Source: a virus (taxonomy: Duplodnaviria; Heunggongvirae; Uroviricota; Caudoviricetes). Taken from it: a stretch of 64,000 nt of DNA. Below are positions 10,118 through 23,144 of this stretch, piece after piece (positions within the stretch are counted from its first letter, which is position 1; each line of letters begins with the position of its first letter). A program made the position numbers and the translations under genes. The notes below the pieces were generated by a model that searched no databases, was not told the DNA's origin, and saw nothing but the letters and a program-made list of their open reading frames with translations. The stretch spans positions 128,833-192,832 of IMG/VR virus record IMGVR_UViG_3300027710_001079; one strand, written 5' to 3'.

Positions 10118-10738
10118 ATGGAAATTCAGTCAAGGATAGATGGTAAACAGATCGTTGTAAATTTACAACAGAATGTGTCTTACGGATTAATGATGTCGGG
10201 CGGGTTAGATAGTGCTGTGTTACTTTATCTAATGCTTAAAGCCTGTCCTACTGCAAGTATACAGCCGTTTTATATTGCCAAGCATGACGGATCGTATGCT
10301 TACATAGACGGCATTATTGAATACATTAACCTATTGTTCAATATTCGTATACCCCAACCTATTAAAGTAGGCTCCCCAGACATACATCATACACAGATCA
10401 ATCAAGCAGGTATTAGGCAGGTGTTATTTAAACACCCCGAAATAGAAAAGTTGTTTATTGGTATTAACCAAAATCCGCCACAACCTTGGGGAGATCCTAA
10501 ATGGGAATTTCCCAATAGGCCCACCTTTAACAGTAATCTCAGAATAGAGATGCCTTTTATGATGCTATACAAGACACATATAGTTGATCTTGTTAATCAA
10601 TTTGAAATTCAGGCACTCGCAAATCTTACGCACACCTGCACCGAACAGGTTACCGGAAGATGTATGAAATGTTTCCAATGTAGCGAACGAGCTTGGGCAT
10701 ACCAAACGCTCGGATTAATAGACCACGGTAAACTTTAA
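10118..10738 (+). CDS. queC: QueC-like PP-loop ATPase (7-cyano-7-deazaguanine synthase family)
   Basis: MMSGGLDSAV PP-loop motif. C-terminal RCMKCFQCSERAWA matches the QueC zinc-binding CxxCxxC motif. Confidence 0.6.
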   Translation: MEIQSRIDGKQIVVNLQQNVSYGLMMSGGLDSAVLLYLMLKACPTASIQPFYIAKHDGSYAYIDGIIEYINLLFNIRIPQPIKVGSPDIHHTQINQAGIRQVLFKHPEIEKLFIGINQNPPQPWGDPKWEFPNRPTFNSNLRIEMPFMMLYKTHIVDLVNQFEIQALANLTHTCTEQVTGRCMKCFQCSERAWAYQTLGLIDHGKL

Positions 10739-11610
10739 GTAGGAGTATCGTAACTCCACTTCCAAGTACGACTATCTTCTAAACCCAATTGTTCACATAG
10801 CTCGTCAGTAAACGTTCCGTCAACTCTAAGTGTATATCGAAATACTGGTTCAGGGTCAACTCCGTGGTAGTCACGGTTATTGAAGAAGTAACTACGAGCG
10901 TCACTATCTAGATAAATCTTTTTCTTAGCCTTTTCGTCCCAAATAAAACTAGGGCGGCTCCCACTTGCAAAAAATAAATTAATATTGTGATCACTGTGTT
11001 CAGCCATAACACTGTCTCGATGTGTTACCACTCCGGCATTTGGATAAGTTGTAAAAAATAAAACTCGACCAATTGTCTTAAACGGCAGTTGATCAATGTA
11101 CTTAACTACCTTGGGGAACAACTTTGCAGCCTCGGTCCATTGCCCGAAGTCTTGTGTCTTTTTCCCAAAATCATTTTTCTTTAAGTACAATGCAAAGAAC
11201 CATGGAATAACTGCACCCATGGCGAAATAAGCATATTTGTACATTGCCTGCATTTCTTTTCCGGGACTACGATCGATAACTTCTTTAAGAGCTTCTCGAT
11301 GTACGCCTGTTGGATCGTACTTGTGTAGTTGTTGAAGCATCTCACTCCAACAATCGTGTCCACCAAACCTAGCAACTTCCTCTGGAGGTAATGCTCCGTA
11401 GGTCATCCCCATTTTATATTCTTCACTCAGTGCAAGACCTTTGCAACATTCGATATGAAGTTCCTGGTCTTGACTGTGATCAATATATTTGTCCATTGAC
11501 AAAATAGGGAGTCGATTCTTACCGACTCCCTTAATGCCATATTCTGTATAAGGATATGATACTATATTCTGCGTATGAAACTTTAAGGATGTGTGTTGCT
11601 GATCTTTCAT
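10735..11610 (-). CDS. cupin/2OG-Fe(II)-oxygenase-like protein (aspartyl beta-hydroxylase-like), putative
   Basis: H-x-D...H arrangement (VVTHRDSVMAEHSDH) in the C-terminal half. Weak. Confidence 0.3.
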   Translation of the reverse strand: MKDQQHTSLKFHTQNIVSYPYTEYGIKGVGKNRLPILSMDKYIDHSQDQELHIECCKGLALSEEYKMGMTYGALPPEEVARFGGHDCWSEMLQQLHKYDPTGVHREALKEVIDRSPGKEMQAMYKYAYFAMGAVIPWFFALYLKKNDFGKKTQDFGQWTEAAKLFPKVVKYIDQLPFKTIGRVLFFTTYPNAGVVTHRDSVMAEHSDHNINLFFASGSRPSFIWDEKAKKKIYLDSDARSYFFNNRDYHGVDPEPVFRYTLRVDGTFTDELCEQLGLEDSRTWKWSYDTPT

Positions 11611-12077
11611 TAGTCTACACTCCTAAAAGTTCGCCAATCATCAATGTTTGGTTTTTCATCTACATCATATGTCCAGCCTAACGCCTTCATCATGCGATGT
11701 TTGACTAATAGATTAGGACTACGGAATCGTCCTGTATCTTCAAAGCCCATCATTACACCAACTTCGCATACTGCACCCGAACGGCAAATGCCAGCAAAGC
11801 AATGCACTACAACATTCATTCGATTCTCTTTTGCGTGTTGCAGTAGGCGAACAAGCTCTGCGGCTTGCTCATGACTGCACTTCATAGCTTCTTCCAGTAC
11901 TTCGTCCTTTTCTTCTACATCCAAGAACTCAAAGTTATGTTGTTCCTTGAACTTGTGGGCAGGAGTAGGACGCCAGCTTGCTGGATCAACAATACTGATC
12001 AGCATCGAATTCTCACCTGCTTCGTGATGAAACCTCTTAGGGATATCATCAGCGGCTACGTTTTCAATCCATGGCAT
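11610..12077 (-). CDS. dual-specificity/tyrosine protein phosphatase
   Basis: HCFAGICRSGAV is the CX5R P-loop of PTP/DSP phosphatases. Confidence 0.7.
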   Translation of the reverse strand: MPWIENVAADDIPKRFHHEAGENSMLISIVDPASWRPTPAHKFKEQHNFEFLDVEEKDEVLEEAMKCSHEQAAELVRLLQHAKENRMNVVVHCFAGICRSGAVCEVGVMMGFEDTGRFRSPNLLVKHRMMKALGWTYDVDEKPNIDDWRTFRSVD

Positions 12078-12093
12078 TTCAATACTCCAAATG

Positions 12094-12273
12094 TTAATTA
12101 GCTCTTAATCGCTCAATTTCGTTTGCGGCTTCTTCTAAAAGGTTTGCAATTTTGTCGGGCTTACCTTCTTCTACTGATTTACGACCTTGAATCTGTCGTC
12201 GAATTTCTGCCCGCTTACGCAAACGGAACACAAGGCTCTGTTCTGCTACAGGTAAATGGCTTTCATCTATCAT
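12094..12273 (-). CDS. hypothetical small coiled-coil protein (59 aa, below ORF-track cutoff)
   Basis: Hand translation MIDESHLPVAEQSLVFRLRKRAEIRRQIQGRKSVEEGKPDKIANLLEEAANEIERLRAN. Fills the minus-strand gap between the phosphatase and the HD hydrolase. Confidence 0.3.
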   Translation of the reverse strand: MIDESHLPVAEQSLVFRLRKRAEIRRQIQGRKSVEEGKPDKIANLLEEAANEIERLRAN

Positions 12274-12382
12274 ACAGTCTCCACAATATAGTATCCCGAA
12301 TTAGGGTAGCGTTCTTGCAACCATTCCAACATGCCCGGTTCATTGGGCAGTTGGATTGAGTTATATTTGTTAGTAATGTACA

Positions 12383-12919
12383 TCATGCACCTACAAACTC
12401 ACTAGCACGAGCATGTAAGCCCGCATCGCCCTTGGTCATCACTGCCAACGCCATACGCTTTTCTTCTAAGTAAGTCTTAGCAAAGGCAGGATCGTGTGCC
12501 ACAATGCTACGACTGTTAGAGATGAAATCGGCTAACTTGATAGTCTGTGCTTCAGCTGGTGCAGATGCAGTGTGTTCACGATCAATTGCCTTACGAACTG
12601 CACGGTTGCCGTCTTCTGGCTTTGACACATCAGTTAACCAACTTACTAATCCTGCAACTTCGGGACCGAAGTTCATGTGGATGTCAGTTAAGGTAACCCC
12701 AGTGTCTTCCACAGTGTCGTGTAACCAAGCAGCCGCAACCATTTCCGGAGTACTATCCGGAACCTCTGCTACGATCCTTGCAACTTCTGCAGGGTGAACA
12801 AAGTAGGGTTCGCCGGTATACTTACGCTTTTGCCCGACCGCACTGTGAGCAGCGATGGCAAAAACTTGGGCCTTGTGTACCAAGTCCATTCCAGTTAATT
12901 CCATAGTAAATCCTTCCAT
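12383..12919 (-). CDS. HD-domain (p)ppGpp hydrolase (SpoT/Mesh1-type small alarmone hydrolase)
   Basis: HSAVGQKRKYTGEPYFVHPAEVA...LHDTVEDT are the RelA/SpoT hydrolase-domain signature motifs (H, HD, ED). Confidence 0.7.
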   Translation of the reverse strand: MEGFTMELTGMDLVHKAQVFAIAAHSAVGQKRKYTGEPYFVHPAEVARIVAEVPDSTPEMVAAAWLHDTVEDTGVTLTDIHMNFGPEVAGLVSWLTDVSKPEDGNRAVRKAIDREHTASAPAEAQTIKLADFISNSRSIVAHDPAFAKTYLEEKRMALAVMTKGDAGLHARASEFVGA

Positions 12920-12945
12920 GCTACTCTCCTTGTTAATAAGTGTAT

Positions 12946-12974
12946 ATTATAGCATGGTTTTACCATACTGTCAA
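12946..12974 (-). promoter_or_regulatory. consensus sigma70 promoter (TTGACA-17-TATAAT)
   Basis: Minus strand reads TTGACAgtatggtaaaaccatgcTATAAT. -35 at 12969..12974, -10 at 12946..12951. Sits upstream of the HD hydrolase start. Confidence 0.6.
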
Positions 12975-13201
12975 CCGGAAGTTTTCAGCACTTTCTGTAT
13001 AGTAATTTCTACTACTAAATGCTTACGAAGAAGCATGAACTTTTTAAACTTGGCTTCTACTTCAGATTGTATATATTCGTCATGATAGGGCACAGTAGCA
13101 ACATCTTCGTAGGGCTCGTCATTTTCATCGAGTGCTATAAATTTCAATGTTACCATGCCCTGCTCGGGCTCTTTAAACAATTTGGCAAGTTTGTTAAACA
13201 T
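12971..13201 (-). CDS. hypothetical protein
   Basis: ORF-track 76 aa. Confidence 0.35.
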   Translation of the reverse strand: MFNKLAKLFKEPEQGMVTLKFIALDENDEPYEDVATVPYHDEYIQSEVEAKFKKFMLLRKHLVVEITIQKVLKTSG

Positions 13202-13209
13202 GCAAATAT

Positions 13210-13758
13210 TTAGTGATGACTTTTGATTTCATTGTCCTTGATCAAGCGGATTGCACGATCCATCGAGATAACGATTTCACCGGTTGAGTCCATACCTACA
13301 TCCATACAACGATATTTTTCCATACCTGTAGTTCCTCCGTGTAAGTGCCCGTGAAAGTGTAATGCTCCCCTGTGCATTTGATCCCATTCAAAAATAGGAT
13401 AGTGAAACATCACAATCTTGTGTCCATCATAGGTAATGTCCAAGTATTCGTGTACTTCTGCAAACGCACTACGGAATGTTTGATCCATCAATGTTTTGCG
13501 ATCATGATTACCACGTACCAAAATCTTTGTACCGTACAAACGATTCACCATACGTCCAGCATCACTGCCGCTCATGAACGCTACATCACCTAAGATGTAT
13601 ACAAGATCTTCCGGAGACACTTTAGCGTTCCATTCTTCCGCCATTGCATTGTTCATGTATGCAACATCGTTATTAAAACGTGCTCGTGTCTGTGGACAGA
13701 AACTCATAATGTTCTTGTGTCCAAAGTGTAAGTCGCTAGTAATCCATGTTTTCATCAA
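13210..13758 (-). CDS. calcineurin-like metallophosphoesterase (Ser/Thr phosphatase family)
   Basis: DLHFGH...GDV...GNHD metallophosphatase motifs. 182 aa. Confidence 0.65.
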   Translation of the reverse strand: MMKTWITSDLHFGHKNIMSFCPQTRARFNNDVAYMNNAMAEEWNAKVSPEDLVYILGDVAFMSGSDAGRMVNRLYGTKILVRGNHDRKTLMDQTFRSAFAEVHEYLDITYDGHKIVMFHYPIFEWDQMHRGALHFHGHLHGGTTGMEKYRCMDVGMDSTGEIVISMDRAIRLIKDNEIKSHH

Positions 13759-13928
13759 TACGTCTCTTTTATAATATCATATAGCTCAGCAGGCCACGCA
13801 GCCTTAAATTCTTCAGTCTTAACATATTCATTGTAGGATTTGGCTTCAAAGAAGACTTTCTTGAATACGCTCATATGCTTACCCTTAGGCAAGATTGTGA
13901 GATAGATTGATTTTGCTTTTCCTGCCAT
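13755..13928 (-). CDS. hypothetical small protein (57 aa, below ORF-track cutoff)
   Basis: Hand translation MAGKAKSIYLTILPKGKHMSVFKKVFFEAKSYNEYVKTEEFKAAWPAELYDIIKETY. Its stop overlaps the next start (ATGA-type coupling). Confidence 0.3.
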   Translation of the reverse strand: MAGKAKSIYLTILPKGKHMSVFKKVFFEAKSYNEYVKTEEFKAAWPAELYDIIKETY

Positions 13929-13956
13929 GATGTTTCCTTAAGTGTAGTAATTATAT

Positions 13957-13985
13957 ATTATACAGTCAAAAGAAAGCCCTGTCAA
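13957..13985 (-). promoter_or_regulatory. consensus sigma70 promoter with the -35 in a terminator-like hairpin
   Basis: Minus strand reads TTGACAgggctttcttttgactgTATAAT. Hairpin gccctgcTTGACAgggc overlaps the -35. Confidence 0.6.
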
Positions 13986-13997
13986 GCAGGGCAGTAA

Positions 13998-14468
13998 TTA
14001 CTGTGCAAACCAAACTTGCGTGAAGCCTTCTTCTACAGTGGGCTCTTCCCAGCTGGCAATCATGCTGGCAACAACATGCTCGGGAATAATCTTACCATCA
14101 TCCCATCGGCTCTCTAATCGCCGCATGAGCTCCTTATGCTCGGGTGTCTTAAACACCACAGCAATATGTTCATAGTTAGGCAACATGTTAAACTTGCGAG
14201 TACGACTTATTAAAGTAGTACTGGTTTGATCCCAGATGATGTCTTTGCCTGCTTCCCGGGCTTCTACTACTTTGTCAGCCATCAACTTTACAGCGGTTGG
14301 CATGTATTCTACAAATACTTCTGAATAGGTCTTACCTTGTTCTCGAGCATAGGCTTCAACAAAATCGTCAGTAGAAACTACTACACAGTCAGGAGCCCAA
14401 TCTTGTTCTTTAATCCAAGTGCTCTTACCTGAAGCAGGCACTCCGACCAATTGATAACATTTTGCCAT
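13998..14468 (-). CDS. P-loop NTPase/kinase (AAA_33 / polynucleotide-kinase-like)
   Basis: LVGVPASGKST Walker A motif. 156 aa. Confidence 0.5.
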   Translation of the reverse strand: MAKCYQLVGVPASGKSTWIKEQDWAPDCVVVSTDDFVEAYAREQGKTYSEVFVEYMPTAVKLMADKVVEAREAGKDIIWDQTSTTLISRTRKFNMLPNYEHIAVVFKTPEHKELMRRLESRWDDGKIIPEHVVASMIASWEEPTVEEGFTQVWFAQ

Positions 14469-14471
14469 TTA

Positions 14472-15221
14472 TTACCTTACTTTGATATTTTTAAATTGTT
14501 GCCTTGAAATAACGATTACCCTAATATCTGCACCAAGCAGATCAATCGGATTAGGAACTTTGTAACCAACTGATTCGAACTGTTCCAAAATACTAACACA
14601 TTCTTTAAAGTCTGAAGTTTTCATTAGCCATGCTTCAAAATGAATAACACTAGGCAGTATAGAAAGACTTAATAAGGATTTTAACAATGAATAGTCAACT
14701 CCATCTAAATCCATTTTTAAATATGCACTGTTTGGTGCAAGATTAAAAATTTCAACTGCGGCTTCGTTACATGTTTTTGGATTTGCAATAGGCAAATTAA
14801 CTGTTATGTCAGCTCTAGTTGTTGTTTTAATTGACGAGGTATCTCCCGACTTATCAAGGTCCACTGTTATATGACTAGGAAAATTGTCACTATCAATAAT
14901 TGACATTTCAACTATATCTATATTAGCATCTAATTGCTCTCTTGTCAATAGTTCTTTTGCAAGATATAGGTATACAGGAACAGCATCGATTAGTATATGC
15001 CTATCCGGATTTACTATTTTTTTTACTTGTGCTGATAGAATACCTAGCCAACACCCCATGTCAACAAAAGTATTGCATCCGTGTGCGGTGTAAAACTCTC
15101 TAATAGTTTCAACTTCTGGATAAGTTGGTTCTCTATTATACTCTGCTCTTTGCTGAGAGACTAGCACTTTCTCTAACCAGCCTGGCGTATTTTTTGGTTT
15201 TGGGTATTGATCTATTTTCAT
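14472..15221 (-). CDS. FkbM-family SAM-dependent methyltransferase
   Basis: FVDMGCWLGILS glycine-rich SAM motif in an FkbM-like context. 249 aa. Confidence 0.45.
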   Translation of the reverse strand: MKIDQYPKPKNTPGWLEKVLVSQQRAEYNREPTYPEVETIREFYTAHGCNTFVDMGCWLGILSAQVKKIVNPDRHILIDAVPVYLYLAKELLTREQLDANIDIVEMSIIDSDNFPSHITVDLDKSGDTSSIKTTTRADITVNLPIANPKTCNEAAVEIFNLAPNSAYLKMDLDGVDYSLLKSLLSLSILPSVIHFEAWLMKTSDFKECVSILEQFESVGYKVPNPIDLLGADIRVIVISRQQFKNIKVR

Positions 15222-15227
15222 ATTAAT

Positions 15228-15301
15228 TGGAGCGGGATAGGAGAATCGAACTCCTGACTAAACCTTGGCAAGGTTTCGTTTGACCATTAAACTAATCCCG
15301 C
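15228..15301 (-). tRNA. tRNA-Gly: tRNA-Gly(GCC)
   Basis: Hand fold. Acceptor GCGGGAT, D arm GTTT-AATGGTC-AAAC, anticodon stem AAACC/GGTTT, loop TTGCCAA, T loop TTCGATT, CCA encoded. 74 nt. Confidence 0.8.
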
Positions 15302-15310
15302 ATACCTTTC

Positions 15311-16081
15311 TTATTTAAGTAACCACTTGAATAAAGTACAAGGGTCATACTCCCAATATTTACCACTAACCCCAGAACCAAAATCAAATGACTTTGGATC
15401 TTTATGGTGATTGTTATGCCATCCTTGGCCCCATGCAAAAATTCCTAAAATAGGAACATTAGTTGACAGGTCTTTTAACTCGAAATTTCTATACCCGGCG
15501 GCAGGAGTATGGCCAAATAAATCTACTAGATTTTCTTGGTGTTGTGCTATGGTCATTGCAATAACAAATCCATATAAGGCTGCTTGCCAGGAAATCAATC
15601 CAACAACTAGCAATGTAATCCAAATGATTTTATTGTAGTGTTTATGTATGAATAAATGAAATGGATCTCTTAACAAGTCAACAGCGTATTTCAAGTTAAC
15701 ATCGGTGGGCTTTAACTTGAATATCCAGCCCATATAGGCACTCCACTTGCCGTGTATAGGGCTGTGGAAATCTTTAACTGTGTCAGCCGATGCATGATGA
15801 TATCCTCTATGCAATGCTACCCAAAATATAGGGCTTCCTTGACATCCAAACATACCTAACACAGCTAATACTTTTTTCTTCCACGGTACAACTGCTAAAG
15901 CATTATGACTTATAATTCTGTGATAGCCAACAGCGATTCCCAGGCCACTAAACAGTGTCCAAAAGATAAAACTGCTCCATAGCCAAATCCAGTCATGCAG
16001 TACAAACATAGTCGTAACTGCTAGAACAAATAGAATATGTATTGGAATAGTAATACTTTTTACATGTTGACTTGTAAACAT
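15311..16081 (-). CDS. membrane fatty-acid (acyl-lipid/acyl-CoA) desaturase
   Basis: Three histidine boxes: HRIISH, HRGYHH, HNNHH. Hydrophobic segments between them. Confidence 0.7.
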   Translation of the reverse strand: MFTSQHVKSITIPIHILFVLAVTTMFVLHDWIWLWSSFIFWTLFSGLGIAVGYHRIISHNALAVVPWKKKVLAVLGMFGCQGSPIFWVALHRGYHHASADTVKDFHSPIHGKWSAYMGWIFKLKPTDVNLKYAVDLLRDPFHLFIHKHYNKIIWITLLVVGLISWQAALYGFVIAMTIAQHQENLVDLFGHTPAAGYRNFELKDLSTNVPILGIFAWGQGWHNNHHKDPKSFDFGSGVSGKYWEYDPCTLFKWLLK

Positions 16082-16090
16082 AATTTATTT

Positions 16091-16687
16091 TTATAAACCT
16101 GCTATTGGTGGTCTGTATTTTTGTTGCAATATGTGATGTCGTACCAGCATGTCTTGCGGCCATACTGCACCTTTCATTAATACAGAATCAAACTCTTTAT
16201 ATTTAGATCTTGTCAGTGCAGGAATTACATGATCAAAATTAATATCATAATGCTTTCTTTCAGGCACTAGATTTCCCCAAATTCGTTCGTGGGATTTTAC
16301 ATATTTTAATGGAATACTACTGTAGTATTCAAACAGCATTTTTTGCTCTGCAAAATTAATTGCATGACTCATTAGTGATGCTATACCTTTCATGGGAATA
16401 GAGGTTACTGCCGTTGCATCATTAACTACTTTTTGTAGATACCAGACTGGTCGACTAGAACTTAATTGCATAATTAAGTAACTTAGTAGGTTATCATTTT
16501 CAAAATATCCCCAGCATAAGTGATCTTCTATATTGTGATCCAATAAAGTATATACAAAGTATGCTTCATTCTTATCCCAGAAATTTATTTTACCTACTTG
16601 ATCGGGAGTTACACCTGCGTGTCTTTCGTGTGAAAGCGTTAATCTTTCGACTAAACTAACATGCTCTAGACCCAGAAGTGTAATCAT
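16091..16687 (-). CDS. hypothetical protein
   Basis: ORF-track 198 aa. Confidence 0.4.
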   Translation of the reverse strand: MITLLGLEHVSLVERLTLSHERHAGVTPDQVGKINFWDKNEAYFVYTLLDHNIEDHLCWGYFENDNLLSYLIMQLSSSRPVWYLQKVVNDATAVTSIPMKGIASLMSHAINFAEQKMLFEYYSSIPLKYVKSHERIWGNLVPERKHYDINFDHVIPALTRSKYKEFDSVLMKGAVWPQDMLVRHHILQQKYRPPIAGL

Positions 16688-16690
16688 GTT

Positions 16691-16918
16691 TCAATAATGT
16701 TCGCTCTTTTTAGGAGGCTTACGAAGTTTTTCCAAATAATTACGACCTACTTTACCTGCTTCAATTTCTCGAAGTGCAGTAACGTTAAATCCGTTATTAC
16801 AAGTAACCATAGGCATATGCCCACGCTTTAGTTCTCTTGCACGAATTGATGCAATTAGTACTAGATCAAAACGATTACCAACCATCTCTACTGCTGCCTG
16901 TGACGTTAAACGTGCCAT
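16691..16918 (-). CDS. rpoZ: DNA-directed RNA polymerase omega subunit homolog
   Basis: [33 protein letters not shown] aligns closely with E. coli RpoZ [33 protein letters not shown]. Confidence 0.7.
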   Translation of the reverse strand: [75 protein letters not shown]

Positions 16919-16951
16919 GTGTTTCCTTGAAGTTAAAGTTAAAATTAAACA

Positions 16952-17065
16952 GGTTCTCTTTTTTACGTGCTACCACTACACCAACGTGAAGACCAACTCA
17001 CGCCTAGGATTCGAACCTAGCCCCTCTTTTTTCAAGAAAGATTATTTTGATTGCTGAAAAGAACC
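16952..17065 (-). ncRNA. yrlA-like: Y-RNA-like tRNA mimic (YrlA-type candidate) #1
   Basis: Minus-strand order: closing stem GGTTCTTTT...AAAAGAGAACC; T arm CTAGG-TTCGAAT-CCTAG; 7-bp acceptor-like stem GCGTGAG/TTCACGT capped by loop TTGGTC instead of open ends; D arm GTGT-AGTGGTA-GCAC. No anticodon arm. Confidence 0.5.
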
Positions 17066-17231
17066 TAAAGGTCAAAACTTACCGAGTAATAAATCTTACT
17101 AGCCGCAACCAGTAATATTTAATTCCTCTAAATGCCGGGAAATCAAATTCTATAAATGATACCGGCTCTTTGGGAATATTGCCGTATGCTTTATCAAGTG
17201 TGTCTTTCGCATTCATATAACATTCCTTTGT

Positions 17232-17306
17232 TGGTGGACCGACGGGGGATCGAACCCCGACCCGAGGCTTGCAAAGCCACTGTGCTCCCATTATCACTAT
17301 CAGCCC
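17232..17306 (-). tRNA. tRNA-Ala: tRNA-Ala(TGC)
   Basis: Hand fold. G3:U70 wobble in the acceptor, anticodon loop TTTGCAA, T arm CGGGG-TTCGATC-CCCCG, CCA encoded. Confidence 0.7.
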
Positions 17307-17310
17307 AAAA

Positions 17311-17384
17311 TGGATGCGGGTGACAGATTCGAACTGCCGATGCACCTGGCTTATGAGACCGGTGTGGTGACCACCCTACCCGCG
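17311..17384 (-). tRNA. tRNA-Met: tRNA-Met(CAT), possibly initiator-like (C1:A72 mismatch)
   Basis: Hand fold. Acceptor CGCGGGT/ACCCGCA with a 1:72 mismatch, anticodon loop CTCATAA, short D arm, T loop TTCGAAT, CCA encoded. Confidence 0.6.
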
Positions 17385-17548
17385 TAATTCTTGTTGATGA
17401 TTATTTTTGTGTCAGGAAACCATCCAACCCCGTGAGAGCAGCCCATCCTGTTTTCGCTTCAGCGGATGCGGAATTTGGATACAGGTCCGCACTAAATTCG
17501 TTTACATACTACTTATCTCATTGTACTCCGTATGTAAGGGAGATTCTT

Positions 17549-17625
17549 TTGGTCGGTGTGACACGATTCGAACATGCGACCACTGCGTCCCAAACGCAGA
17601 GCTCTACCAAGCTGAGCTACACACC
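17549..17625 (-). tRNA. tRNA-Pro: tRNA-Pro(TGG)
   Basis: Hand fold. D arm GCTC-AGCTTGGTA-GAGC, anticodon stem CTGCG/CGCAG, loop TTTGGGA, T loop TTCGAAT, CCA encoded. 77 nt. Confidence 0.75.
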
Positions 17626-17632
17626 GATTATC

Positions 17633-17708
17633 CTGGTACGTCCTGACGGGCTCGAACCGCCGACAGCTGCCGTGTAAAGGCAGAACTCTACCAACTGAGT
17701 TAAGGACG
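17633..17708 (-). tRNA. tRNA-Val: tRNA-Val(TAC)
   Basis: Hand fold. D arm ACTC-AGTTGGTA-GAGT, anticodon stem CTGCC/GGCAG, loop TTTACAC, CCA encoded. Confidence 0.75.
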
Positions 17709-17778
17709 CAAAATACAACAGGCTTCGCTTTTTTTCATTTACAGTGAAATTTTTATTTGCTGAAAGAAGCCTAAAAAT

Positions 17779-17852
17779 TGGAGCGGGGTAAGAGAATCGA
17801 ACTCTCAGCATTAGCTTGGAAGGCTAAGGTATTACCACTATACGAACCCCGC
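17779..17852 (-). tRNA. tRNA-Gly: tRNA-Gly(TCC)
   Basis: Hand fold. Acceptor GCGGGGT/ACCCCGC, D arm GTAT-AGTGGTA-ATAC, anticodon stem TTAGC/GCTAA, loop CTTCCAA, CCA encoded. Confidence 0.8.
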
Positions 17853-18367
17853 ATTAAATCTATTTAGTAAAACACACTAACACCGCTGGCAAAGTAATTA
17901 CATTACTTGATACGAGTACCTAATGTGTTTTAATAAAGTGTCTAGCTACCTACACCACATAGGCCCTAAACTGAGCGGTTTACTCTGTCTCACGTTATCC
18001 CTTATGGTTGGACTATTCGTCTACCTGTGATATTTTCCGTGCTCCTGAAATGAAGCCGTGTAGTAGATCTCACGCACTAAGTTCGTCGTTATGGCAAGGA
18101 AACCACTCGCCCACTTTAATAACGGTCAAGTGTAACCGGGTTTTTAACAGGTTAATACTAGTTTAACGTCCTAGCAGACAGCCATTTTTTTATTGCCGTA
18201 ATTAACCTAAATAGGTTTTTGAGAGACTGACTATCTTTCTTAAGGACTCATCAGGTTGTCTCGAATGAAAGAGTTTATGCAGACCTTGTACAATTCTACT
18301 GGTGTGTCATGCTCAAGAATAGGGCACTAGAATACAAGGGACTCATCTCACCGTCTATCTCAAAACT

Positions 18368-18459
18368 TGGTACCCCCGGCGGGAGTCGAACCCACACTAA
18401 CCAATTATCTGTTGCATACGGGATATAAATCCGCTGTTCTACCATTAAACTACAGGGGC
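18368..18459 (-). tRNA. tRNA, long-variable-arm (type II-like) gene; anticodon loop reads TTTATAT (TAT?), assignment uncertain
   Basis: Acceptor GCCCCTG/CGGGGGT, D arm GTTT-AATGGTA-GAAC, T arm GTGGG-TTCGACT-CCCGC, CCA encoded. There is a ~20-nt variable region. The anticodon stem has an A:C mismatch. 92 nt. Confidence 0.45.
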
Positions 18460-18538
18460 ATAAAATAACAGGATCAACTTTTTATGTTTCAGTATAAATG
18501 AAATTTTTATTATGTTTGCTGAACTGATCCTAAAAACT

Positions 18539-18628
18539 TGGCGGTGCGACTGAGACTCGAACTCAGAACCCGGCTTTCACCGAGCGACGGATTAGCAATC
18601 CGCTCTAATACCATTATAGGACCGCACC
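18539..18628 (-). tRNA. tRNA-Ser: tRNA-Ser(GCT), type II
   Basis: Hand fold. 3-bp D stem, anticodon loop TTGCTAA, variable arm CTCGG-TGAAAG-CCGGG, T arm CTGAG-TTCGAGT-CTCAG, CCA encoded. 90 nt. Confidence 0.75.
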
Positions 18629-18633
18629 ATATT

Positions 18634-18709
18634 TGGCTCCCCAGCGTGGGATCGAACCACGGACACCTTGATTAACAGTCAAGTGCAACTACCGCTGTGC
18701 TACTAGGGA
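18634..18709 (-). tRNA. tRNA-Asn: tRNA-Asn(GTT)
   Basis: Hand fold. Perfect anticodon stem CTTGA/TCAAG, loop CTGTTAA, T arm CGTGG-TTCGATC-CCACG, CCA encoded. Confidence 0.75.
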
Positions 18710-18722
18710 ATATATTCTTTAC

Positions 18723-18956
18723 TTACACACTAGTACTTGCAGTACCGGTGTCATTGGTTACGTAACTAGTACCCTGTGGACGAGGTGCGTTACGATCACG
18801 TTTTTCTGATCTTGGAACAATGCTTGCTGCCACTTGAGCATCAATCATTGCATTTTTAAAACCATGACGGTCTTGTTCATTTTTAAACTTCATCAATGCT
18901 AACATTGTTTTTGTTCGTTTACTCAACTTAAAAGTTGCAGATGTTCTTGATCTCAT
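18723..18956 (-). CDS. hypothetical small basic protein within the tRNA array
   Basis: ORF-track 77 aa. Does not overlap the flanking tRNAs. Confidence 0.3.
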   Translation of the reverse strand: MRSRTSATFKLSKRTKTMLALMKFKNEQDRHGFKNAMIDAQVAASIVPRSEKRDRNAPRPQGTSYVTNDTGTASTSV

Positions 18957-18977
18957 TTTAGTCCTTAATAAAAAATT

Positions 18978-19051
18978 GGTCCGGCGTAGAGGAATCGAAC
19001 CTCTATTAAGACTTTAGAAGAATCCTGTCCTATCCATTGAACGAACGCCAG
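18978..19051 (-). tRNA. tRNA-Arg: tRNA-Arg(TCT)
   Basis: Hand fold. D arm GTTC-AATGGATA-GGAC, anticodon loop CTTCTAA, T arm AGAGG-TTCGATT-CCTCT, CCA encoded. Confidence 0.75.
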
Positions 19052-19060
19052 GTAATTGTT

Positions 19061-19144
19061 TGGTACGAGAGACGGGACTCGAACCCGTATGCCTTTCGAC
19101 GGGAGATTTTAAGTCTCCTGAGTATACCATTTCTCCACTCTCGC
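19061..19144 (-). tRNA. tRNA-Leu: tRNA-Leu(TAA), type II
   Basis: Hand fold. 3-bp D stem, anticodon stem GGAGA/TCTCC, loop CTTAAAA, long variable arm, T arm ACGGG-TTCGAGT-CCCGT, CCA encoded. 84 nt. Confidence 0.75.
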
Positions 19145-19232
19145 ATTCACCATATTAGAACACATTTAAACAGTCCTTCAACGCTAGACGCTATCTCCCC
19201 AACTAGAGGGCGGAACTGTATGTGTTTTAATA

Positions 19233-19316
19233 TGGTGCCCCAGGTCGGACTCGAACCGACACGGATTTCTCCACTGGCTTCTAAGACCAGCGTGGCTACC
19301 ATTACACCACCGGGGC
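19233..19316 (-). tRNA. tRNA-Leu: tRNA-Leu(TAG), type II
   Basis: Hand fold. Anticodon loop CTTAGAA, long variable arm, T arm GTCGG-TTCGAGT-CCGAC, CCA encoded. 84 nt. Confidence 0.7.
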
Positions 19317-19371
19317 AAAATACTGACTTAACTTTTTAATGAACAGTGCTGTGTTAACAGCGTATGTATTA

Positions 19372-19400
19372 ATTATACAGTCTATTTAACAGTGTGTCAA
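19372..19400 (-). promoter_or_regulatory. consensus sigma70 promoter inside the tRNA array
   Basis: Minus strand reads TTGACAcactgttaaatagactgTATAAT. -35 at 19395..19400, -10 at 19372..19377. Points toward the tRNA-Leu/Arg/Asn block. Confidence 0.55.
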
Positions 19401-19420
19401 TAGATATATAAAAATATTTT

Positions 19421-19495
19421 TGGAAGAGCTACGGGGAATCGAACCCCGCTTGCCTGGATGAAAACCAGATGTCCTAACCGATAGACGATAGCTCC
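19421..19495 (-). tRNA. tRNA-Glu: tRNA-Glu(TTC)
   Basis: Hand fold. D arm GTCT-ATCGGTTA-GGAC, anticodon loop TTTTCAT, T arm CGGGG-TTCGATT-CCCCG, CCA encoded. Confidence 0.7.
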
Positions 19496-19637
19496 ATAAA
19501 AAGTGTTAGGTGTGCTACTACGCTAAAAGGGAAACAGTCCTTACCAGTTACGGGGTGACCTATTACTTCCTAGACTATATCTAGGCCCTACTCCTTAGAG
19601 GATGGACGCCTTTAATCCCACCTTCCTAACTATAACT

Positions 19638-19712
19638 TGGTGGTGATGAGTAGAGTCGAACTACCACCTTGCTCCGTATGAAGGAGGTGCACTACCATTA
19701 TGCTACATCACC
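19638..19712 (-). tRNA. tRNA-Met: tRNA-Met(CAT), elongator or Ile2-type
   Basis: Hand fold. Acceptor GGTGATG/CATCACC, D arm GCAT-AATGGTA-GTGC, anticodon loop TTCATAC, T loop TTCGACT, CCA encoded. Confidence 0.7.
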
Positions 19713-19809
19713 ATATGTAAACACACTAAGGTTTATTAAGAGTTATGACTATGTCAAAGAGCTCCTGGGATACCAAACCTGATCTTTTTACAGATTTAAG
19801 TATGTTTAC

Positions 19810-19860
19810 ATATGGTAGGGGCACAGGGAATCGAACCCTGATAGACCGGATCTTTGAAGT
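19810..19860 (-). pseudogene. tRNA 3'-half fragment (T arm + acceptor 3' strand + CCA, no matching 5' half)
   Basis: CAGGG-TTCGATT-CCCTG-TGCCCCT-A-CCA is present. No D arm or complementary acceptor 5' strand lies upstream. Confidence 0.4.
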
Positions 19861-19891
19861 CTTAGATTTTATTTGCTGAGTTTAGCAATAA

Positions 19892-20371
19892 TCATTTGTC
19901 TTTTAATCTGTCCCAAGCACGATCCTGAGTTTGTTGTGCCTTGCGGGCGTATGCTGGATCTTTATCTGCTTGTTTACTTGTTACTCTATCTGCGGCACGA
20001 TTGTGGACCTTGCCTAACTGCTTCTGACCTTTAGCAGTATCACCGTATTCTTCTAAAGAGCCTTCTGATACACCTTGCTCTTTATCCTTCTTTGCTTTTT
20101 CTATTGCGTCCCATTCGGCTCCGGTCTTTTCACCTCGTTTTTTCTTTACAGGAGGTTTAGATGAACGAACACCAGTGTGTTGATTTATATAATCACCGCT
20201 TGGAGTTTTGGTCCAGCCCTCTGCTACTTCTTCGCTTTGGGCATTTTCAATAAGGTTGATATAATCGCGGATAGATTTGTTTGTCATAGTGTAGTATTTA
20301 TGCTTCACGCTTCCAAAATCTAAAAGATTCCGCGAGTTTTTCGCGGATGTATTCTTCTGTTTCGGTATCAC
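19892..20371 (-). CDS. hypothetical Lys/Glu-rich protein
   Basis: ORF-track 159 aa. Low-complexity charged C-terminus. Confidence 0.4.
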   Translation of the reverse strand: MIPKQKNTSAKNSRNLLDFGSVKHKYYTMTNKSIRDYINLIENAQSEEVAEGWTKTPSGDYINQHTGVRSSKPPVKKKRGEKTGAEWDAIEKAKKDKEQGVSEGSLEEYGDTAKGQKQLGKVHNRAADRVTSKQADKDPAYARKAQQTQDRAWDRLKDK

Positions 20372-20443
20372 AAGATGCTAACTCACTATCCACCAAATCG
20401 TGAATTTTTGTCCATAATTCGTTGTATAGGTCTTGTTCATTCA

Positions 20444-21019
20444 TTACTTAACTCCTAACAATCGTTTAGCTCTTGAATAGTTATTACCCTTTGCCGCAAT
20501 ACCTGCCTTAAGCAAACCTTGCCTGATATTATCAGTTTCTTTTAGGCATTGTAGTAAGAACTCATCCGAGACTTCATTTACTCCATTCCTAGATGGTTTG
20601 TTTCTTCCTCGCCAAGTATCAGTAATACTATGGCAGTTCGGACACAATCCTTCTAAGTTTTCTCTACTATTATTAGTAGTGTTGCCATCTTTGTGTTCTA
20701 GTTCAAGCGGAATCTTAAACCCCTGCCATTCACTTACACCGCATCTATTACAGCAATGATTTTGTTCTTCAAACACCCTGCGGCGTCTGTTTTCAGAACC
20801 CAACTCGGCAAACGGTGTAGCATTGTATTTGTCTAATCGTGCTTGCCTAATGTTTGCTTTCCATTGTTCTGGATTTGCCCTAACTGCTGTTCGTCCTGCC
20901 AACTTAGCAGAACGACTTTCATTTATATCTTTACTCCACTCTCTGCTATTGGCACAAGAGCGTGAGCAGTATAAGCCTGCTTTTTCGTGTTCTTTGTTAC
21001 ACTTAGGACATTGTTTCAT
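20444..21019 (-). CDS. HNH homing endonuclease
   Basis: Zinc-finger-like CPKC...CSRSC pair, then ELEHKDGN...NLEGLCPNCH HNH motif. Embedded in the tRNA array. Confidence 0.7.
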   Translation of the reverse strand: MKQCPKCNKEHEKAGLYCSRSCANSREWSKDINESRSAKLAGRTAVRANPEQWKANIRQARLDKYNATPFAELGSENRRRRVFEEQNHCCNRCGVSEWQGFKIPLELEHKDGNTTNNSRENLEGLCPNCHSITDTWRGRNKPSRNGVNEVSDEFLLQCLKETDNIRQGLLKAGIAAKGNNYSRAKRLLGVK

Positions 21020-21156
21020 ATCGTACCTTGTTAAAATATAAAAGTATTTATCTAAGTACGATATAAAACAACATTCTAATGGTGAGGGTGTAGGGTACTG
21101 ACCCCTATTTTACGAGTTAAAAGCTCGTTACTTCACCTTAAAGTTTCACCCCCATA

Positions 21157-21231
21157 TGGTCCCTCCGCTGAGAATTGAACTCAGTCTTCTCGGATTAAGA
21201 GTCCGGTATGCTACCGTAACATCTCGAAGGG
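21157..21231 (-). tRNA. tRNA-Lys: tRNA-Lys(CTT)
   Basis: Hand fold. Acceptor CCCTTCG/CGGAGGG, D arm ATGT-TACGGTA-GCAT, anticodon loop CTCTTAA, T loop TTCAATT, CCA encoded. Confidence 0.6.
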
Positions 21232-21339
21232 ATGGATCGTAAGAATTGTCTTTTACGTGCCATCCAGGACCATACGGGGGTCTAGGATGACACTAACGTT
21301 TACCTGAACGTTTCATGTCGTTCTCCTTTTAAATAAAAT

Positions 21340-21414
21340 TGGCGGTACCAGGGGGTAACGATCCCCCTCCTCAGCAGTGACAGTGCTGTGTGCGTCCATG
21401 AACACCTTGGAACC
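21340..21414 (-). tRNA. tRNA-Asp: tRNA-Asp(GTC)-like with non-canonical T loop (ATCGTTA)
   Basis: Acceptor GGTTCCA/TGGTACC, D arm GTGT-TCATGGAC-GCAC, perfect anticodon stem CAGCA/TGCTG, loop CTGTCAC, CCA encoded. The T loop deviates from TTCRANN and may be degenerate. Confidence 0.45.
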
Positions 21415-21419
21415 TAAAT

Positions 21420-21506
21420 TGGTGGAGACGACTGGAGTCGAACCAGTAGTGCCTTTCGGGCGGCGGATTTACAGTCCACTGGGGTTACCAATTTTCCTAC
21501 ATCTCC
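21420..21506 (-). tRNA. tRNA-Tyr: tRNA-Tyr(GTA), type II
   Basis: Hand fold. Anticodon stem GTGGA/TCCGC, loop CTGTAAA, variable arm CGCCCGAAAGGC, T arm ACTGG-TTCGACT-CCAGT, CCA encoded. 87 nt. Confidence 0.7.
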
Positions 21507-21628
21507 ATTAATTGAATCCTCTACACTATATGCCTATCCTCAACAGCTTTACTCGAGATTACTGTTTATTGAATAAGTTACATAACGTATGATCAAACCT
21601 CTGTGCTTGCAGAGGATTCAATTAATGG
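21505..21628. repeat. perfect 18-bp inverted repeat bracketing the tRNA-Tyr/tRNA-Ile spacer
   Basis: ccattaattgaatcctct at 21505..21522 is the exact reverse complement of agaggattcaattaatgg at 21611..21628. The arms overlap the 5' end of tRNA-Tyr and the CCA end of tRNA-Ile. Confidence 0.75.
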
Positions 21629-21700
21629 TACCCGAAGCAAGATTTGAACTTGCGACCAACGGCTTATCAAGCCGCTGCTCTACCACTGAGCTATCCGGGT
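21626..21700 (-). tRNA. tRNA-Ile: tRNA-Ile(GAT)
   Basis: Hand fold. D arm GCTC-AGTGGTA-GAGC, anticodon loop TTGATAA, T arm GCAAG-TTCAAAT-CTTGC, CCA encoded. Confidence 0.8.
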
Positions 21701-21832
21701 AAACTTTTGATTTAACTTTTTAAAGAACGTTTGTTAATTTCTTAACATGTGTATATTATAGCAAAGTTTTGCCACTTTGTCAAGTTCTTTTTGTGTTGTA
21801 TTTTTACAACATATTTGGCACCCGTTACGGAT

Positions 21833-22486
21833 TTAAACCTTTATAATTCTGCCCTTACTCCACCCATTTGGAATATCATCAGACTTTTTAATTTTTTTAT
21901 TTTCTATGCCGTTAGTAATCCACATAGTTCCAAACTGTGAGCCTTTTTCACCTTTACCTCTCCCAGTTCTTTGCCATGTTAATTTCTTCTTAGCAATTGC
22001 CTCTGGAGAATTAGCTACTGACAACGCAGTCCAGTAATTTGGATTTTTTACAGAAGAGTTTCCAAGTTTACCTAATTGGCTCCGTTCTTCAGGAGTTAAT
22101 TGTGCCATTCTTGATTTTCCGCCCTTCGATGACTCGTTAGGAGTTAACTTAAAATTTTTACTATGCTTATTGATATAATCAAATCCGCCGTAGCCTCCTC
22201 GTCTTTTATTGTAAACATCTGTTCTTAATAAAAATTCTTCGTTTACAATTTCTTTTTCTCGATTAAACATAGACTCTGAAGTATCGAATGTTTCTAATAT
22301 TCTTTTGGAAAAATTTTCAATTCCGAACTCTTTATATGCTTTATGAAGTTCTGAACCAGACCCCATATAACCGTCATCCATATTTTTAGTTTTATGGACT
22401 CCAACATAAATCATATTGTTTATGTTGTTTCTAATTTCGTACAAATAGTAGTATCTCATAAAACTATTTATACTTTGTGTGGGCAA
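21833..22486 (-). CDS. GIY-YIG homing endonuclease
   Basis: N-terminal YYLYEIRN...MIYVGV GIY-YIG motif, then RRGGYGG. Embedded in the tRNA array. Confidence 0.65.
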   Translation of the reverse strand: MPTQSINSFMRYYYLYEIRNNINNMIYVGVHKTKNMDDGYMGSGSELHKAYKEFGIENFSKRILETFDTSESMFNREKEIVNEEFLLRTDVYNKRRGGYGGFDYINKHSKNFKLTPNESSKGGKSRMAQLTPEERSQLGKLGNSSVKNPNYWTALSVANSPEAIAKKKLTWQRTGRGKGEKGSQFGTMWITNGIENKKIKKSDDIPNGWSKGRIIKV

Positions 22487-22568
22487 GTGTGGAATCGAAC
22501 CACCTAGTCTCTCATGTTCGAAAGGGCCTAGAATTTCTTAAGAGTGCGAAACCATTTCGCGTCATGCC
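22478..22568 (-). tRNA. irregular tRNA-like gene (D arm and T arm present; acceptor and anticodon arm imperfect)
   Basis: D arm GCGA-AATGGTT-TCGC and T arm GGTGG-TTCGATT-CCACA in canonical order. The acceptor pairs at only 5/7 positions and no clean 5-7-5 anticodon arm is found. Possible pseudo-tRNA or intron-bearing tRNA. Confidence 0.3.
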
Positions 22569-22574
22569 TATAAT

Positions 22575-22649
22575 TGGTAGTTCCTACTGGGATCGAACCA
22601 GTGACCTTCACAATGTCAATGTGATATTCTACCGCTGAAATAAGGAACT
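22575..22649 (-). tRNA. tRNA-Val: tRNA-Val(GAC)
   Basis: Hand fold. Perfect acceptor AGTTCCT/AGGAACT, perfect anticodon stem TCACA/TGTGA, loop TTGACAT, T arm CACTGG-TTCGATC-CCAGT, CCA encoded. Confidence 0.8.
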
Positions 22650-22655
22650 GTTGTT

Positions 22656-22774
22656 TGGTGGTGACCCCTGGATTCGAACCAGGATCTCGTCCTTATGAAT
22701 GGAATGAAGTAGTTGCTGTATTGTATCCTTGCCAGGATCGCTTTCTACGTGTGCTACCGTTACACCAAGTCACC
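22656..22774 (-). tRNA. 119-nt tRNA with a ~45-nt insertion between D arm and T arm (possible intron or giant variable region)
   Basis: Acceptor GGTGACT/GGTCACC, D arm GTGT-AACGGTA-GCAC, T arm CCTGG-TTCGAAT-CCAGG, CCA encoded. The intervening 66 nt cannot be folded into a single anticodon arm plus normal variable loop. Confidence 0.4.
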
Positions 22775-22775
22775 G

Positions 22776-22853
22776 TGGTACCCTAGGTCGGATTCGAACC
22801 GACACGATTCTCCTTTTGAGAGAGACGCCTCATTCCAATTGGGCTACTAGGGC
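22776..22853 (-). tRNA. tRNA (anticodon loop CTCAAAA, CAA = Leu by anticodon, but short variable arm)
   Basis: Acceptor GCCCTAG/CTAGGGT, 3-bp D stem with long D loop, anticodon stem TCTCT/GGAGA, T arm GTCGG-TTCGAAT-CCGAC, CCA encoded. Confidence 0.5.
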
Positions 22854-22861
22854 ATAAAAAT

Positions 22862-22935
22862 TGGTGCGGGGTAGGAGAATCGAACTCCTGCTTAAACGTT
22901 GGCAACGTCTGGTTCTACCATTTAACTAACCACGC
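22862..22935 (-). tRNA. tRNA-Gly: tRNA-Gly(GCC), second copy
   Basis: Hand fold. Anticodon stem AGACG/CGTTT, loop TTGCCAA, T arm AGGAG-TTCGATT-CTCCT, CCA encoded. Confidence 0.7.
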
Positions 22936-22941
22936 ATTATT

Positions 22942-23019
22942 TGGAATCTGGGGTGAGATTTGAACTCACGGTTTTACGGATTTGCAATCCATTGCATTGG
23001 GCCACTCTGCCACCCAGAC
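22942..23019 (-). tRNA. tRNA-Cys: tRNA-Cys(GCA)
   Basis: Hand fold. Anticodon stem ATGGA/TCCGT, loop TTGCAAA, T arm GTGAG-TTCAAAT-CTCAC, CCA encoded. Confidence 0.7.
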
Positions 23020-23030
23020 ATAATAAAACA

Positions 23031-23144
23031 GGATACTTTTTTTCGATGGCTTGTAAGCCATTGCTCTACCATTGAGCGAATCATTCCATCAGGAATAATG
23101 TTGGAATCGAACCAACGTGTCGTTAGACATTGCTGTAAGTATCC
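23031..23144 (-). ncRNA. yrlA-like: Y-RNA-like tRNA mimic (YrlA-type candidate) #2
   Basis: Minus-strand order: 8-bp closing stem GGATACTT/AAGTATCC; T arm GTTGG-TTCGATT-CCAAC; 7-bp acceptor-like stem ATTATTC/GAATGAT capped by loop CTGATG; D arm GCTC-AATGGTA-GAGC; extra hairpin ATGGC-TTACAA-GCCAT where the anticodon arm would be. Same permuted architecture as element #1. Confidence 0.5.

Follow-up and report, generated by a model that had tools for sequence, protein, structure and literature searches.

Organization of the Locus

We examined a 64,000-nucleotide stretch of viral DNA (positions 128,833 to 192,832 of IMG/VR record IMGVR_UViG_3300027710_001079; hereafter the window) that carries on its minus strand a gene for a 75-aa homolog of RpoZ, the omega subunit of bacterial RNA polymerase (RNAP). 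Along this strand, the genes follow each other in the order tRNA array, 45-aa open reading frame (ORF), omega gene, ORF of unassigned function, and fatty-acid desaturase gene (table 1). The omega start codon is preceded by a Shine–Dalgarno-like motif, and AGGA or AAGGA motifs are likewise found ahead of the start at related omega loci. The TGA stop is followed after 3 nt by the ATG of the next gene, which encodes a 198-aa protein and is probably co-translated with omega. The tRNA gene nearest to omega is a tRNA-Ala gene (17232-17306), and all 37 tRNA genes of the window, which serve nearly all amino acids, lie on the same strand (8975-24599, minus).

The ORF Encodes a Homolog of RpoZ

The 75-aa protein matches the Pfam profile PF01192 (RNA_pol_Rpb6) with E=4.9e-13 and 49.3 bits (gathering score 26) and the NCBIfam rpoZ equivalog TIGR00690 with 43.1 bits (cutoff 23.6). 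A first-pass annotation, made from the letters of the window alone, had proposed a phage-encoded rpoZ homolog and named PF01192 as the profile to search; the score obtained is far beyond chance. The residue pattern that it had drawn against Escherichia coli RpoZ was also correct. In a HMMER search of all PDB sequences, E. coli omega was matched with E=5.5e-12 in an alignment spanning residues 1-66, with 21 identities among the first 33 residues. An AlphaFold2 model (a predicted, not a solved, structure, with 77 relatives of the protein as input) has a mean predicted local distance difference test score of 83.5 and helices at residues 7-13, 16-31, 44-53, and 59-65. When this model was compared with the PDB by Foldseek, the top 38 matches were all RNAP omega chains, the best one, E. 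coli omega, with a template modeling score of 0.74 and a root-mean-square deviation of 2.4 A over 65 columns. Because the profiles, the E. coli omega match, and the fold model agree, the similarity to RpoZ is not due to chance, and we conclude from sequence and predicted fold that the ORF is a genuine RpoZ homolog. The proposal was further borne out by the conserved motifs, phage context, recurrence, and purifying selection described below.

The Omega Gene Is Carried by Phage DNA

The omega gene is encoded in phage DNA and not in cellular DNA, as indicated by the rIIA and rIIB genes, homing endonucleases, PHROG families, and tRNA genes around it and by its recurrence on viral contigs. Genes for HNH and GIY-YIG homing endonucleases are interspersed among the tRNA genes, and the window also encodes a phage ATPase family and NAMPT. 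Several neighbors of omega fall into phage families (phrog_547 phosphoesterase, phrog_990 phosphohydrolase, and phrog_850 Ro-like RNA-binding protein), and a polynucleotide-kinase-like P-loop kinase is also located nearby. The exact 75-aa protein was found on 21 contigs of up to 153 kb, from several independent samples and with the same gene order; its 90% identity cluster includes a 381-kb contig. Neither the 64-kb window nor two 10-kb extensions of it contain capsid, tail, or terminase genes, and the extensions carry further accessory genes and no transcription genes. No close cultivated relative was detected by megablast of positions 14000-19000 against GenBank phages. Among isolates, the jumbo Pseudomonas phage PA5oct comes closest in rIIA (32.6% identity); it has no polymerase genes and relies on the host RNAP (PMC7318152).

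The gene order typical of proteobacterial rpoZ loci is absent. The cellular loci that we examined have gmk, encoding guanylate kinase, upstream of rpoZ and relA/spoT downstream, and nearly all those fetched are devoid of tRNA genes. Neither gmk nor spoT flanks omega in the window.

A Family of Omegas in Uncultivated Jumbo Phages

Peptide patterns derived from the window protein retrieved 129 IMG/VR viral contigs with omega relatives, and two patterns from the family alignment raised this count to at least 254. Many of these contigs are 230-365 kb long and one reaches 525 kb. Omega is conserved in a large group of uncultivated, tRNA-rich jumbo phages. The statement in the first-pass annotation that viral omegas are rare holds for the 50,697 phage records of GenBank, among which no genuine omega was found and every match checked was bacterial, and fails for metagenomes.

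These GenBank records were searched by tblastn with the window omega, a divergent phage-type omega (P0174), and a cellular beta-type omega (P0212), and all queries gave the same nine records. Two of the nine are openly Salmonella genome records. Three records labeled as phage contain plain bacterial chromosome (CAKLQH020000003.1, MG065691.1, and MT839270.1; L252-L254). The omega of "Acinetobacter phage MD-2021a" was rejected as bacterial, its contig carrying pil genes and gmk-rpoZ-spoT, as was that of "Campylobacter phage A11a", in which 6.2 kb are 100% identical to E. coli K-12. MT839270 is an unverified 4.4-kb fragment with spoT downstream and was rejected likewise.

A scan of genome contigs was made with peptide patterns biased to Gammaproteobacteria, the matches being 49-55% identical. 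The top matches came from short GTDB contigs in metagenome-assembled genomes of Lentimicrobiaceae, Polynucleobacter, and Haliscomenobacter (L086, L087, and L090), all with phage-type omega sequences. Given these sequences and the tRNA genes that are also present on two of them (L087 and L090), the contigs are probably misbinned phage fragments. Ten related viral loci (L081:3779-4738 and nine others) carry near omega a gene for a TctC (Bug-family) periplasmic tricarboxylate receptor, which gives a weak hint of a Burkholderiales-type host.

PHROGs v4 contains no family matching the phage omega, and the automatic annotation of the JGI already names these proteins omega. Full-text literature searches combining omega or rpoZ with phage, jumbo, and megaphage did not turn up any description of an omega encoded by a phage. 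Neither omega, rpoZ, nor ppGpp appears in a jumbo-phage review from 2026, and a virome paper rich in rpoZ uses the gene solely as a bacterial marker. As far as we found, phage omegas are thus labeled in databases, yet undiscussed in the literature searched. They represent a known protein family, as a distinct phage clade, in a setting not previously described. Metagenome pipelines label these phage genes as bacterial rpoZ, which may mislead the assignment of hosts, the detection of contamination, and work relying on rpoZ as a bacterial marker.

Phage Omegas Form a Clade under Purifying Selection

The median pairwise ratio of nonsynonymous to synonymous substitutions (dN/dS) is 0.19 (Nei-Gojobori method; 474 pairs with dS of 0.05-1.5 among 55 distinct genes). 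Phage omegas are under purifying selection. We compared, column by column, 53 omegas from phage contexts with 60 gamma-type and 26 beta-type cellular omegas. Invariant or near-invariant residues in all three sets are R3, T5, N15, R16, F17, L19, V20, L21, A23, R26, R28, L30, the loop glycine G33, V46, A48, L49, E51, I52, and G55. The phage proteins have kept the omega core motifs GNRF, AxxRAR, and ALxEIxxG; AxxRAR and ALxEI are named as conserved omega motifs (PMC7700224).

Against this common core, four positions distinguish the phage proteins. Counted in the phage, gamma-type, and beta-type sets, respectively, S6 occurs in 52, 0, and 0 sequences, E29 in 53, 0, and 0, Y61 in 53, 0, and 1, and R59 in 49, 0, and 1. 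The median identity is 63% within phage omegas and about 45% between these and either cellular type; gamma-type and beta-type omegas are likewise 45% identical to each other. No phage omega exceeds about 58% identity to any cellular sequence sampled. In neighbor-joining trees, the phage set was split off in 197 of 200 bootstraps, and by these sequence comparisons phage omegas form their own phage-specific clade. Since the alignment has only 68 columns and the cellular sequences represent only two groups, this clade supports, and does not prove, a single old acquisition. The window omega has a net charge of about +6 and a basic tail. We had taken shortness and positive charge as phage-specific by comparison with the acidic gamma-type omegas, a view withdrawn because beta-type cellular omegas are alike, with 67 aa, charges of +4 to +6, and the same loop lengths as phage omegas.

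Association with tRNA Arrays and Conserved Neighbors

For a survey of gene neighborhoods, we clustered all ORFs in 86 loci and mapped their tRNA genes; neighbors were counted for 52 distinct omegas. In almost every locus surveyed, a large tRNA array is bordered on its downstream side by the phage omega gene. Of the distinct omegas, 51 have a tRNA gene upstream within the locus, the closest of which invariably shares the omega strand; in 21 cases it is within 100 nt of the omega start, typically at 14-31 nt. Overall, tRNA genes are six times commoner upstream (638) than downstream (105). The most constant coding neighbor is the phrog_547 metallophosphoesterase, which is present in 57 of the 86 loci and accompanies 33 of the 52 distinct omegas; its gene often follows omega immediately.

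The 45-aa ORF (MNAKDTLDKAYGNIPKEPVSFIEFDFPAFRGIKYYWLRLVRFITR) has about 20 distinct homologs in omega loci according to tblastn, often 24-830 nt upstream of omega, and matches no Pfam family. The 198-aa ORF has no Pfam, PHROG, or PDB match and was rejected as a conserved partner of omega, its homologs being restricted to the near-identical loci L001-L005. Promoter-like sites upstream of omega occur at chance level only. Between the 45-aa ORF and omega, a stretch of the minus strand (16960-17030) resembles tRNA fragments, with a T-arm-like hairpin (CTAGGTTCGAATCCTAG), an acceptor-like hairpin, and then a D-arm-like sequence (GGTGTAGTGGTAGCAC). It is not called by ARAGORN or Rfam, folds no better than shuffled sequences (z=-0.73), and is present in near-identical loci only. 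It is probably a decayed tRNA remnant.

An RNA-repair-like gene set surrounds the tRNA array (6990-14468, minus). It consists of the Ro/TROVE-like protein, the dual-specificity phosphatase, the phrog_547 metallophosphoesterase, and the polynucleotide-kinase-like kinase, and several of its members co-occur with omega in many phages. Besides the desaturase gene close to omega, a second one is located just past the left end of the window (L250:6083-6874), together with genes for an acyl-carrier protein, several radical SAM enzymes, and 2-oxoglutarate-dependent oxygenases.

The N-Terminus and a Putative Alarmone Hydrolase

In E. coli, omega residues 2-5 together with beta-prime residues coordinate the phosphates of guanosine tetraphosphate (ppGpp) at site 1 of RNAP (PMC7676912), and an N-terminal MAR motif predicts this site (PMC6912228). 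The window omega starts with M-A-R-L-T and thus carries the MAR motif, with ARLT at residues 2-5 where E. coli has ARVT. A MAR or MAK start is found in only 16 of the 53 distinct phage family members; about 70% have a different or extended N-terminus. The variants include MAR..., MT(A/S)R..., MSNSR..., and M(T/S)(E/Q)SR(A/V)R...; most members have either M(T/S)(E/Q)S before R-A/V-R-Y-T-S or other variants. Despite this variability of the extreme N-terminus, R3 and T5 are more than 90% conserved across the family. These features would fit a tuned pocket but do not amount to evidence for one.

The first-pass annotation had also placed a cluster of (p)ppGpp hydrolase genes 4 kb from omega. A gene for a protein resembling small alarmone hydrolases does lie 3.8 kb downstream; it is a single gene and not a cluster. 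In the PDB, its product is most closely related to Rel/SpoT hydrolase domains, MESH1, and small alarmone hydrolases. This putative hydrolase is a standalone HD domain of the RelA/SpoT type with an HD...ED motif ("LHDTVEDT" in the alignment). Its identity to a cellular SpoT/Rel hydrolase domain is 36%, insufficient to judge whether rpoZ and spoT were captured together from a host operon. Among 52 distinct omega variants, only nine have an alarmone hydrolase gene within 10 kb, and these include both types of N-terminus. Linkage of the two genes was accordingly rejected as a conserved feature, and omega plus hydrolase is a possibility for the window phage and not a conserved module. No DksA/TraR-like protein was found in the window; an ORF with a CxxC...CxxC pattern (54263-54454) has no such relative.

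Other Genes of the Window

The features of the window are listed in table 1. Genes for a heme oxygenase and two bilin reductases lie next to a beta-ketoacyl synthase gene (47920-51015) and constitute a bilin-pigment pathway, carried here by a phage with a proteobacterial-type omega. The signaling and envelope genes (37213-46190) point to a Gram-negative host. Just past the window end, a gene encodes a fusion of NMNAT and NUDIX domains (L248:6752-9922), which together with NAMPT makes up an NAD salvage pair.

Table 1. Features Identified in the 64-kb Window
Feature	Position	Strand	Evidence or remark
Ro/TROVE-like RNA-binding protein, phrog_850	6990-8405	minus	
Dual-specificity phosphatase	11610-12077	minus	
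Small alarmone hydrolase-like HD_4 protein, 178 aa	12383-12919	minus	Pfam HD_4 E=2.2e-16
Metallophosphoesterase, phrog_547	13210-13758	minus	Pfam Metallophos; phrog_547 E=1.8e-51
Polynucleotide-kinase-like AAA_33 kinase	13998-14468	minus	
Fatty-acid desaturase homolog	15311-16081	minus	Close to omega
198-aa ORF, function unassigned	16091-16687	minus	ATG 3 nt after omega stop
rpoZ-like gene, 75-aa phage omega homolog	16691-16918	minus	ORF list; ATG 16918-16916, TGA stop 16693-16691
Shine–Dalgarno-like AAGGAA	16923-16928	minus	Read from sequence; 4 nt upstream of omega ATG
45-aa conserved small ORF	17079-17216	minus	Between last tRNA and omega
tRNA array upstream of omega	17232-24599	minus	32 of the 37 window tRNA genes; ARAGORN, Rfam
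HNH endonuclease	20444-21019	minus	Inside tRNA region
GIY-YIG endonuclease	21833-22486	minus	Inside tRNA region
CHASE2-adenylate/guanylate cyclase	37213-39285	minus	
F5/8 type C domain protein	41083-42837	minus	
FecR-like protein	42834-43949	minus	
CsgF-like protein	45711-46190	minus	
Ferredoxin-dependent bilin reductase	47920-48588	minus	
Ferredoxin-dependent bilin reductase	48585-49301	minus	
Heme oxygenase	49237-49788	minus	
Beta-ketoacyl synthase	49789-51015	minus	Adjoins bilin genes
ClpS adaptor	51012-51320	minus	
HSP20 small heat-shock protein	51357-51827	minus	
rIIB	57149-58225	minus	phrog_609 RIIB E=4.9e-79; Pfam Phage_T4_rIIB on same gene in L248
rIIA	58203-60377	minus	phrog_612 RIIA E=2.9e-130
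NAMPT	63162-63998	minus	Cut by window end

A Possible Role on the Host RNA Polymerase

We favor, with a probability of roughly 0.6, the interpretation that the gene encodes a functional omega subunit that binds the RNAP of the host. Omega would be co-transcribed with the same-strand tRNA array just upstream and would take up the usual omega position on host beta-prime, either in place of the host subunit or as a supplement to it. The phage may in this way control the supply and the properties of omega-bearing polymerase during infection. The residues restricted to the phage clade (S6, E29, K31/R32, R59, and Y61) might tune the affinity or form a phage-specific surface. Omega exchange is plausible because 17-25% of E. 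coli RNAP particles observed by cryo-electron microscopy lack omega despite its co-overexpression and because mutant E. coli omegas can displace the wild type on the core and change initiation, a phenomenon termed "subunit poisoning" (PMC7700224). By analogy with cellular omega, candidate gains are stabilization of beta-prime and control through ppGpp site 1. Two other candidates are that, as is reported for cellular omega, it favors the primary sigma factor and, according to a preprint, stabilizes the elongating polymerase. As the M-ARLT start of the window omega matches the coordinating segment of site 1, the polymerase of the window phage would probably stay responsive to ppGpp, unless the nearby alarmone hydrolase removes the signal.

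Several considerations weigh against this interpretation. Everything beyond the presence of an omega homolog in a phage is inferred from sequence. The whole genome probably measures 230-380 kb, of which the window covers 64 kb, and a multisubunit polymerase of the phage itself might be encoded elsewhere. E. coli without rpoZ is viable with mild phenotypes (PMC7676912, PMC7700224), so that the benefit of an extra omega is not obvious. Finally, with N-termini other than MAR in about 70% of its members, the family has no uniform role at ppGpp site 1.

A more specific form of the host-polymerase interpretation, which we regard as tentative, is that a private omega on the host RNAP marks or re-tunes the enzyme, so that phage genes, the tRNA array first among them, escape stringent control. 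This might be achieved through a changed ppGpp site 1, a phage-specific docking surface for phage regulators, or both. Somewhat less likely is a role centered on the alarmone itself, in which phage omega alters site 1 and works with the alarmone hydrolase against stringent throttling, especially of the tRNA array. Bacterial rRNA and tRNA promoters are classic targets of stringent control, and omega is placed after a tRNA array, with the hydrolase-like gene 3.8 kb away. The binding of site 1 phosphates by omega residues 2-5 and beta-prime (PMC7676912), the MAR rule (PMC6912228), and the conservation of R3 and T5 behind a variable extreme N-terminus are also consistent with such a role. However, a hydrolase gene is found within 10 kb of 9 of 52 distinct omegas, with both N-terminus types, no DksA/TraR-like protein was found in the window, and the host-like ARLT segment argues for preserving, not abolishing, site 1. 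Moreover, the effect of site 1 in E. coli is smaller than that of the DksA-dependent site 2 (PMC7676912).

The remaining explanations appear improbable to different degrees. Phage omega could be a poison that has a higher affinity for the core than host omega and either disables initiation at host promoters or redirects it. Single-residue mutants of E. coli omega do bind alpha2-beta-beta-prime more tightly, displace the wild type, and block initiation (PMC7700224), and several positions have become fixed for other residues in the phage clade. Yet such phages probably depend on this polymerase to express genes of their own, as for PA5oct (PMC7318152), no evidence points to toxicity, and E. coli N60, the site of the N60D poison mutation, is a glycine in the phage family as in beta-type omegas, all of which makes a poison unlikely. 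We consider equally unlikely that the protein has left RNAP to become a small basic protein with, for example, a nucleic-acid-binding function. Its net charge of about +6 and basic tail, its clade-specific fixed residues, and its constant neighbors (tRNA genes, the polynucleotide-kinase-like kinase, phosphoesterases, and the Ro-like RNA-binding protein) would fit this idea, but cellular beta-type omegas match it in shortness (67 aa) and basic charge (+4 to +6), and a protein that no longer binds beta-prime would not be expected to keep all shared core residues invariant. Still less probable is that omega belongs to a multisubunit RNAP encoded by the phage. Large eukaryotic DNA viruses do have RNAPs of their own that include Rpb6 homologs, the genomes of omega-bearing phages reach 525 kb, and most of the genome of the window phage lies outside the window. 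Conversely, no omega is known from the multisubunit RNAPs of phiKZ-type phages, and no NADFDGD-type catalytic motif of beta-prime was found in 1.7 Mb comprising the window and omega-flanking loci. The 45-50% identity to proteobacterial omega, with all core residues kept, suits a host-type beta-prime better, and RNAP genes are missing from PA5oct, the isolate with the closest rIIA. A mis-assembled piece of host DNA or a recently captured host gene without a role might be suspected, given that every omega match checked in GenBank "phage" records was bacterial contamination. The same protein and gene order on 21 independent contigs, the relatives on more than 250 viral contigs, the dN/dS of 0.19, the separate clade with at most about 58% identity to the cellular sequences sampled, and the absence of gmk and spoT flanks stand against it, and contamination or a neutral passenger is effectively excluded.

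Comparison with Known Systems and Significance

The phage omega shares with bacterial RpoZ of the proteobacterial type its scores above profile cutoffs, its predicted helical fold, the GNRF, AxxRAR, and ALxEIxxG motifs, and, in the window, the MAR start; with the 67-aa beta-type omegas, the window protein shares length, loop lengths, and positive charge. It differs from cellular RpoZ in being encoded by a phage beside tRNA arrays, and not in a gmk-rpoZ-spoT context, and in S6, E29, R59, and Y61, which are absent or nearly absent in the cellular sets. In addition, most phage N-termini are altered or extended.

Phages appropriate the host RNAP by means of proteins such as AsiA, MotA, gp55, gp33, and Alt of T4 and Gp2 of T7. 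To our knowledge, none of these is homologous to a core subunit. The presumed purpose would be the same, namely, control of the host polymerase by a phage without its own; T4 and T7 use sigma factors, sigma-binding proteins, inhibitors, and modifying enzymes, whereas with omega the phage would itself supply a core subunit. A further phage protein that appropriates the host RNAP is gp39 of a Thermus phage. As in the dominant-lethal omega mutants of E. coli (PMC7700224), in which an altered omega can outcompete the resident one and change initiation, a phage omega might act by exchange; those are laboratory point mutants, and the phage omega has no N60D-type change. In the gene transfer agent of Rhodobacter (PMC9638019), a phage-derived system also contacts omega to activate its own genes. 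There, however, the regulator GafA binds the host omega, whereas here the element itself encodes omega. Ribosomal proteins encoded in phage genomes (PMC6375957) are likewise small subunits of an essential host-type machine, although of another machine. The Rpb6 homologs of eukaryotic viruses are also small subunits carried by a virus and differ in serving a polymerase encoded by the virus.

Known takeover of RNAP by phages proceeds through sigma factors, inhibitors, and covalent modification, and the supply of a core subunit is not a known route. The existence of a conserved phage omega clade under selection points to a new route of transcriptional takeover. If subunit substitution does take place, these phages would be the first bacterial viruses to exchange a core subunit of the host RNAP for one of their own. 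Phage omegas also constitute a natural experiment on the debated role of omega in assembly, sigma competition, ppGpp site 1, and elongation stability, in which the MAR and the extended N-terminal variants are ready-made probes of ppGpp site 1.

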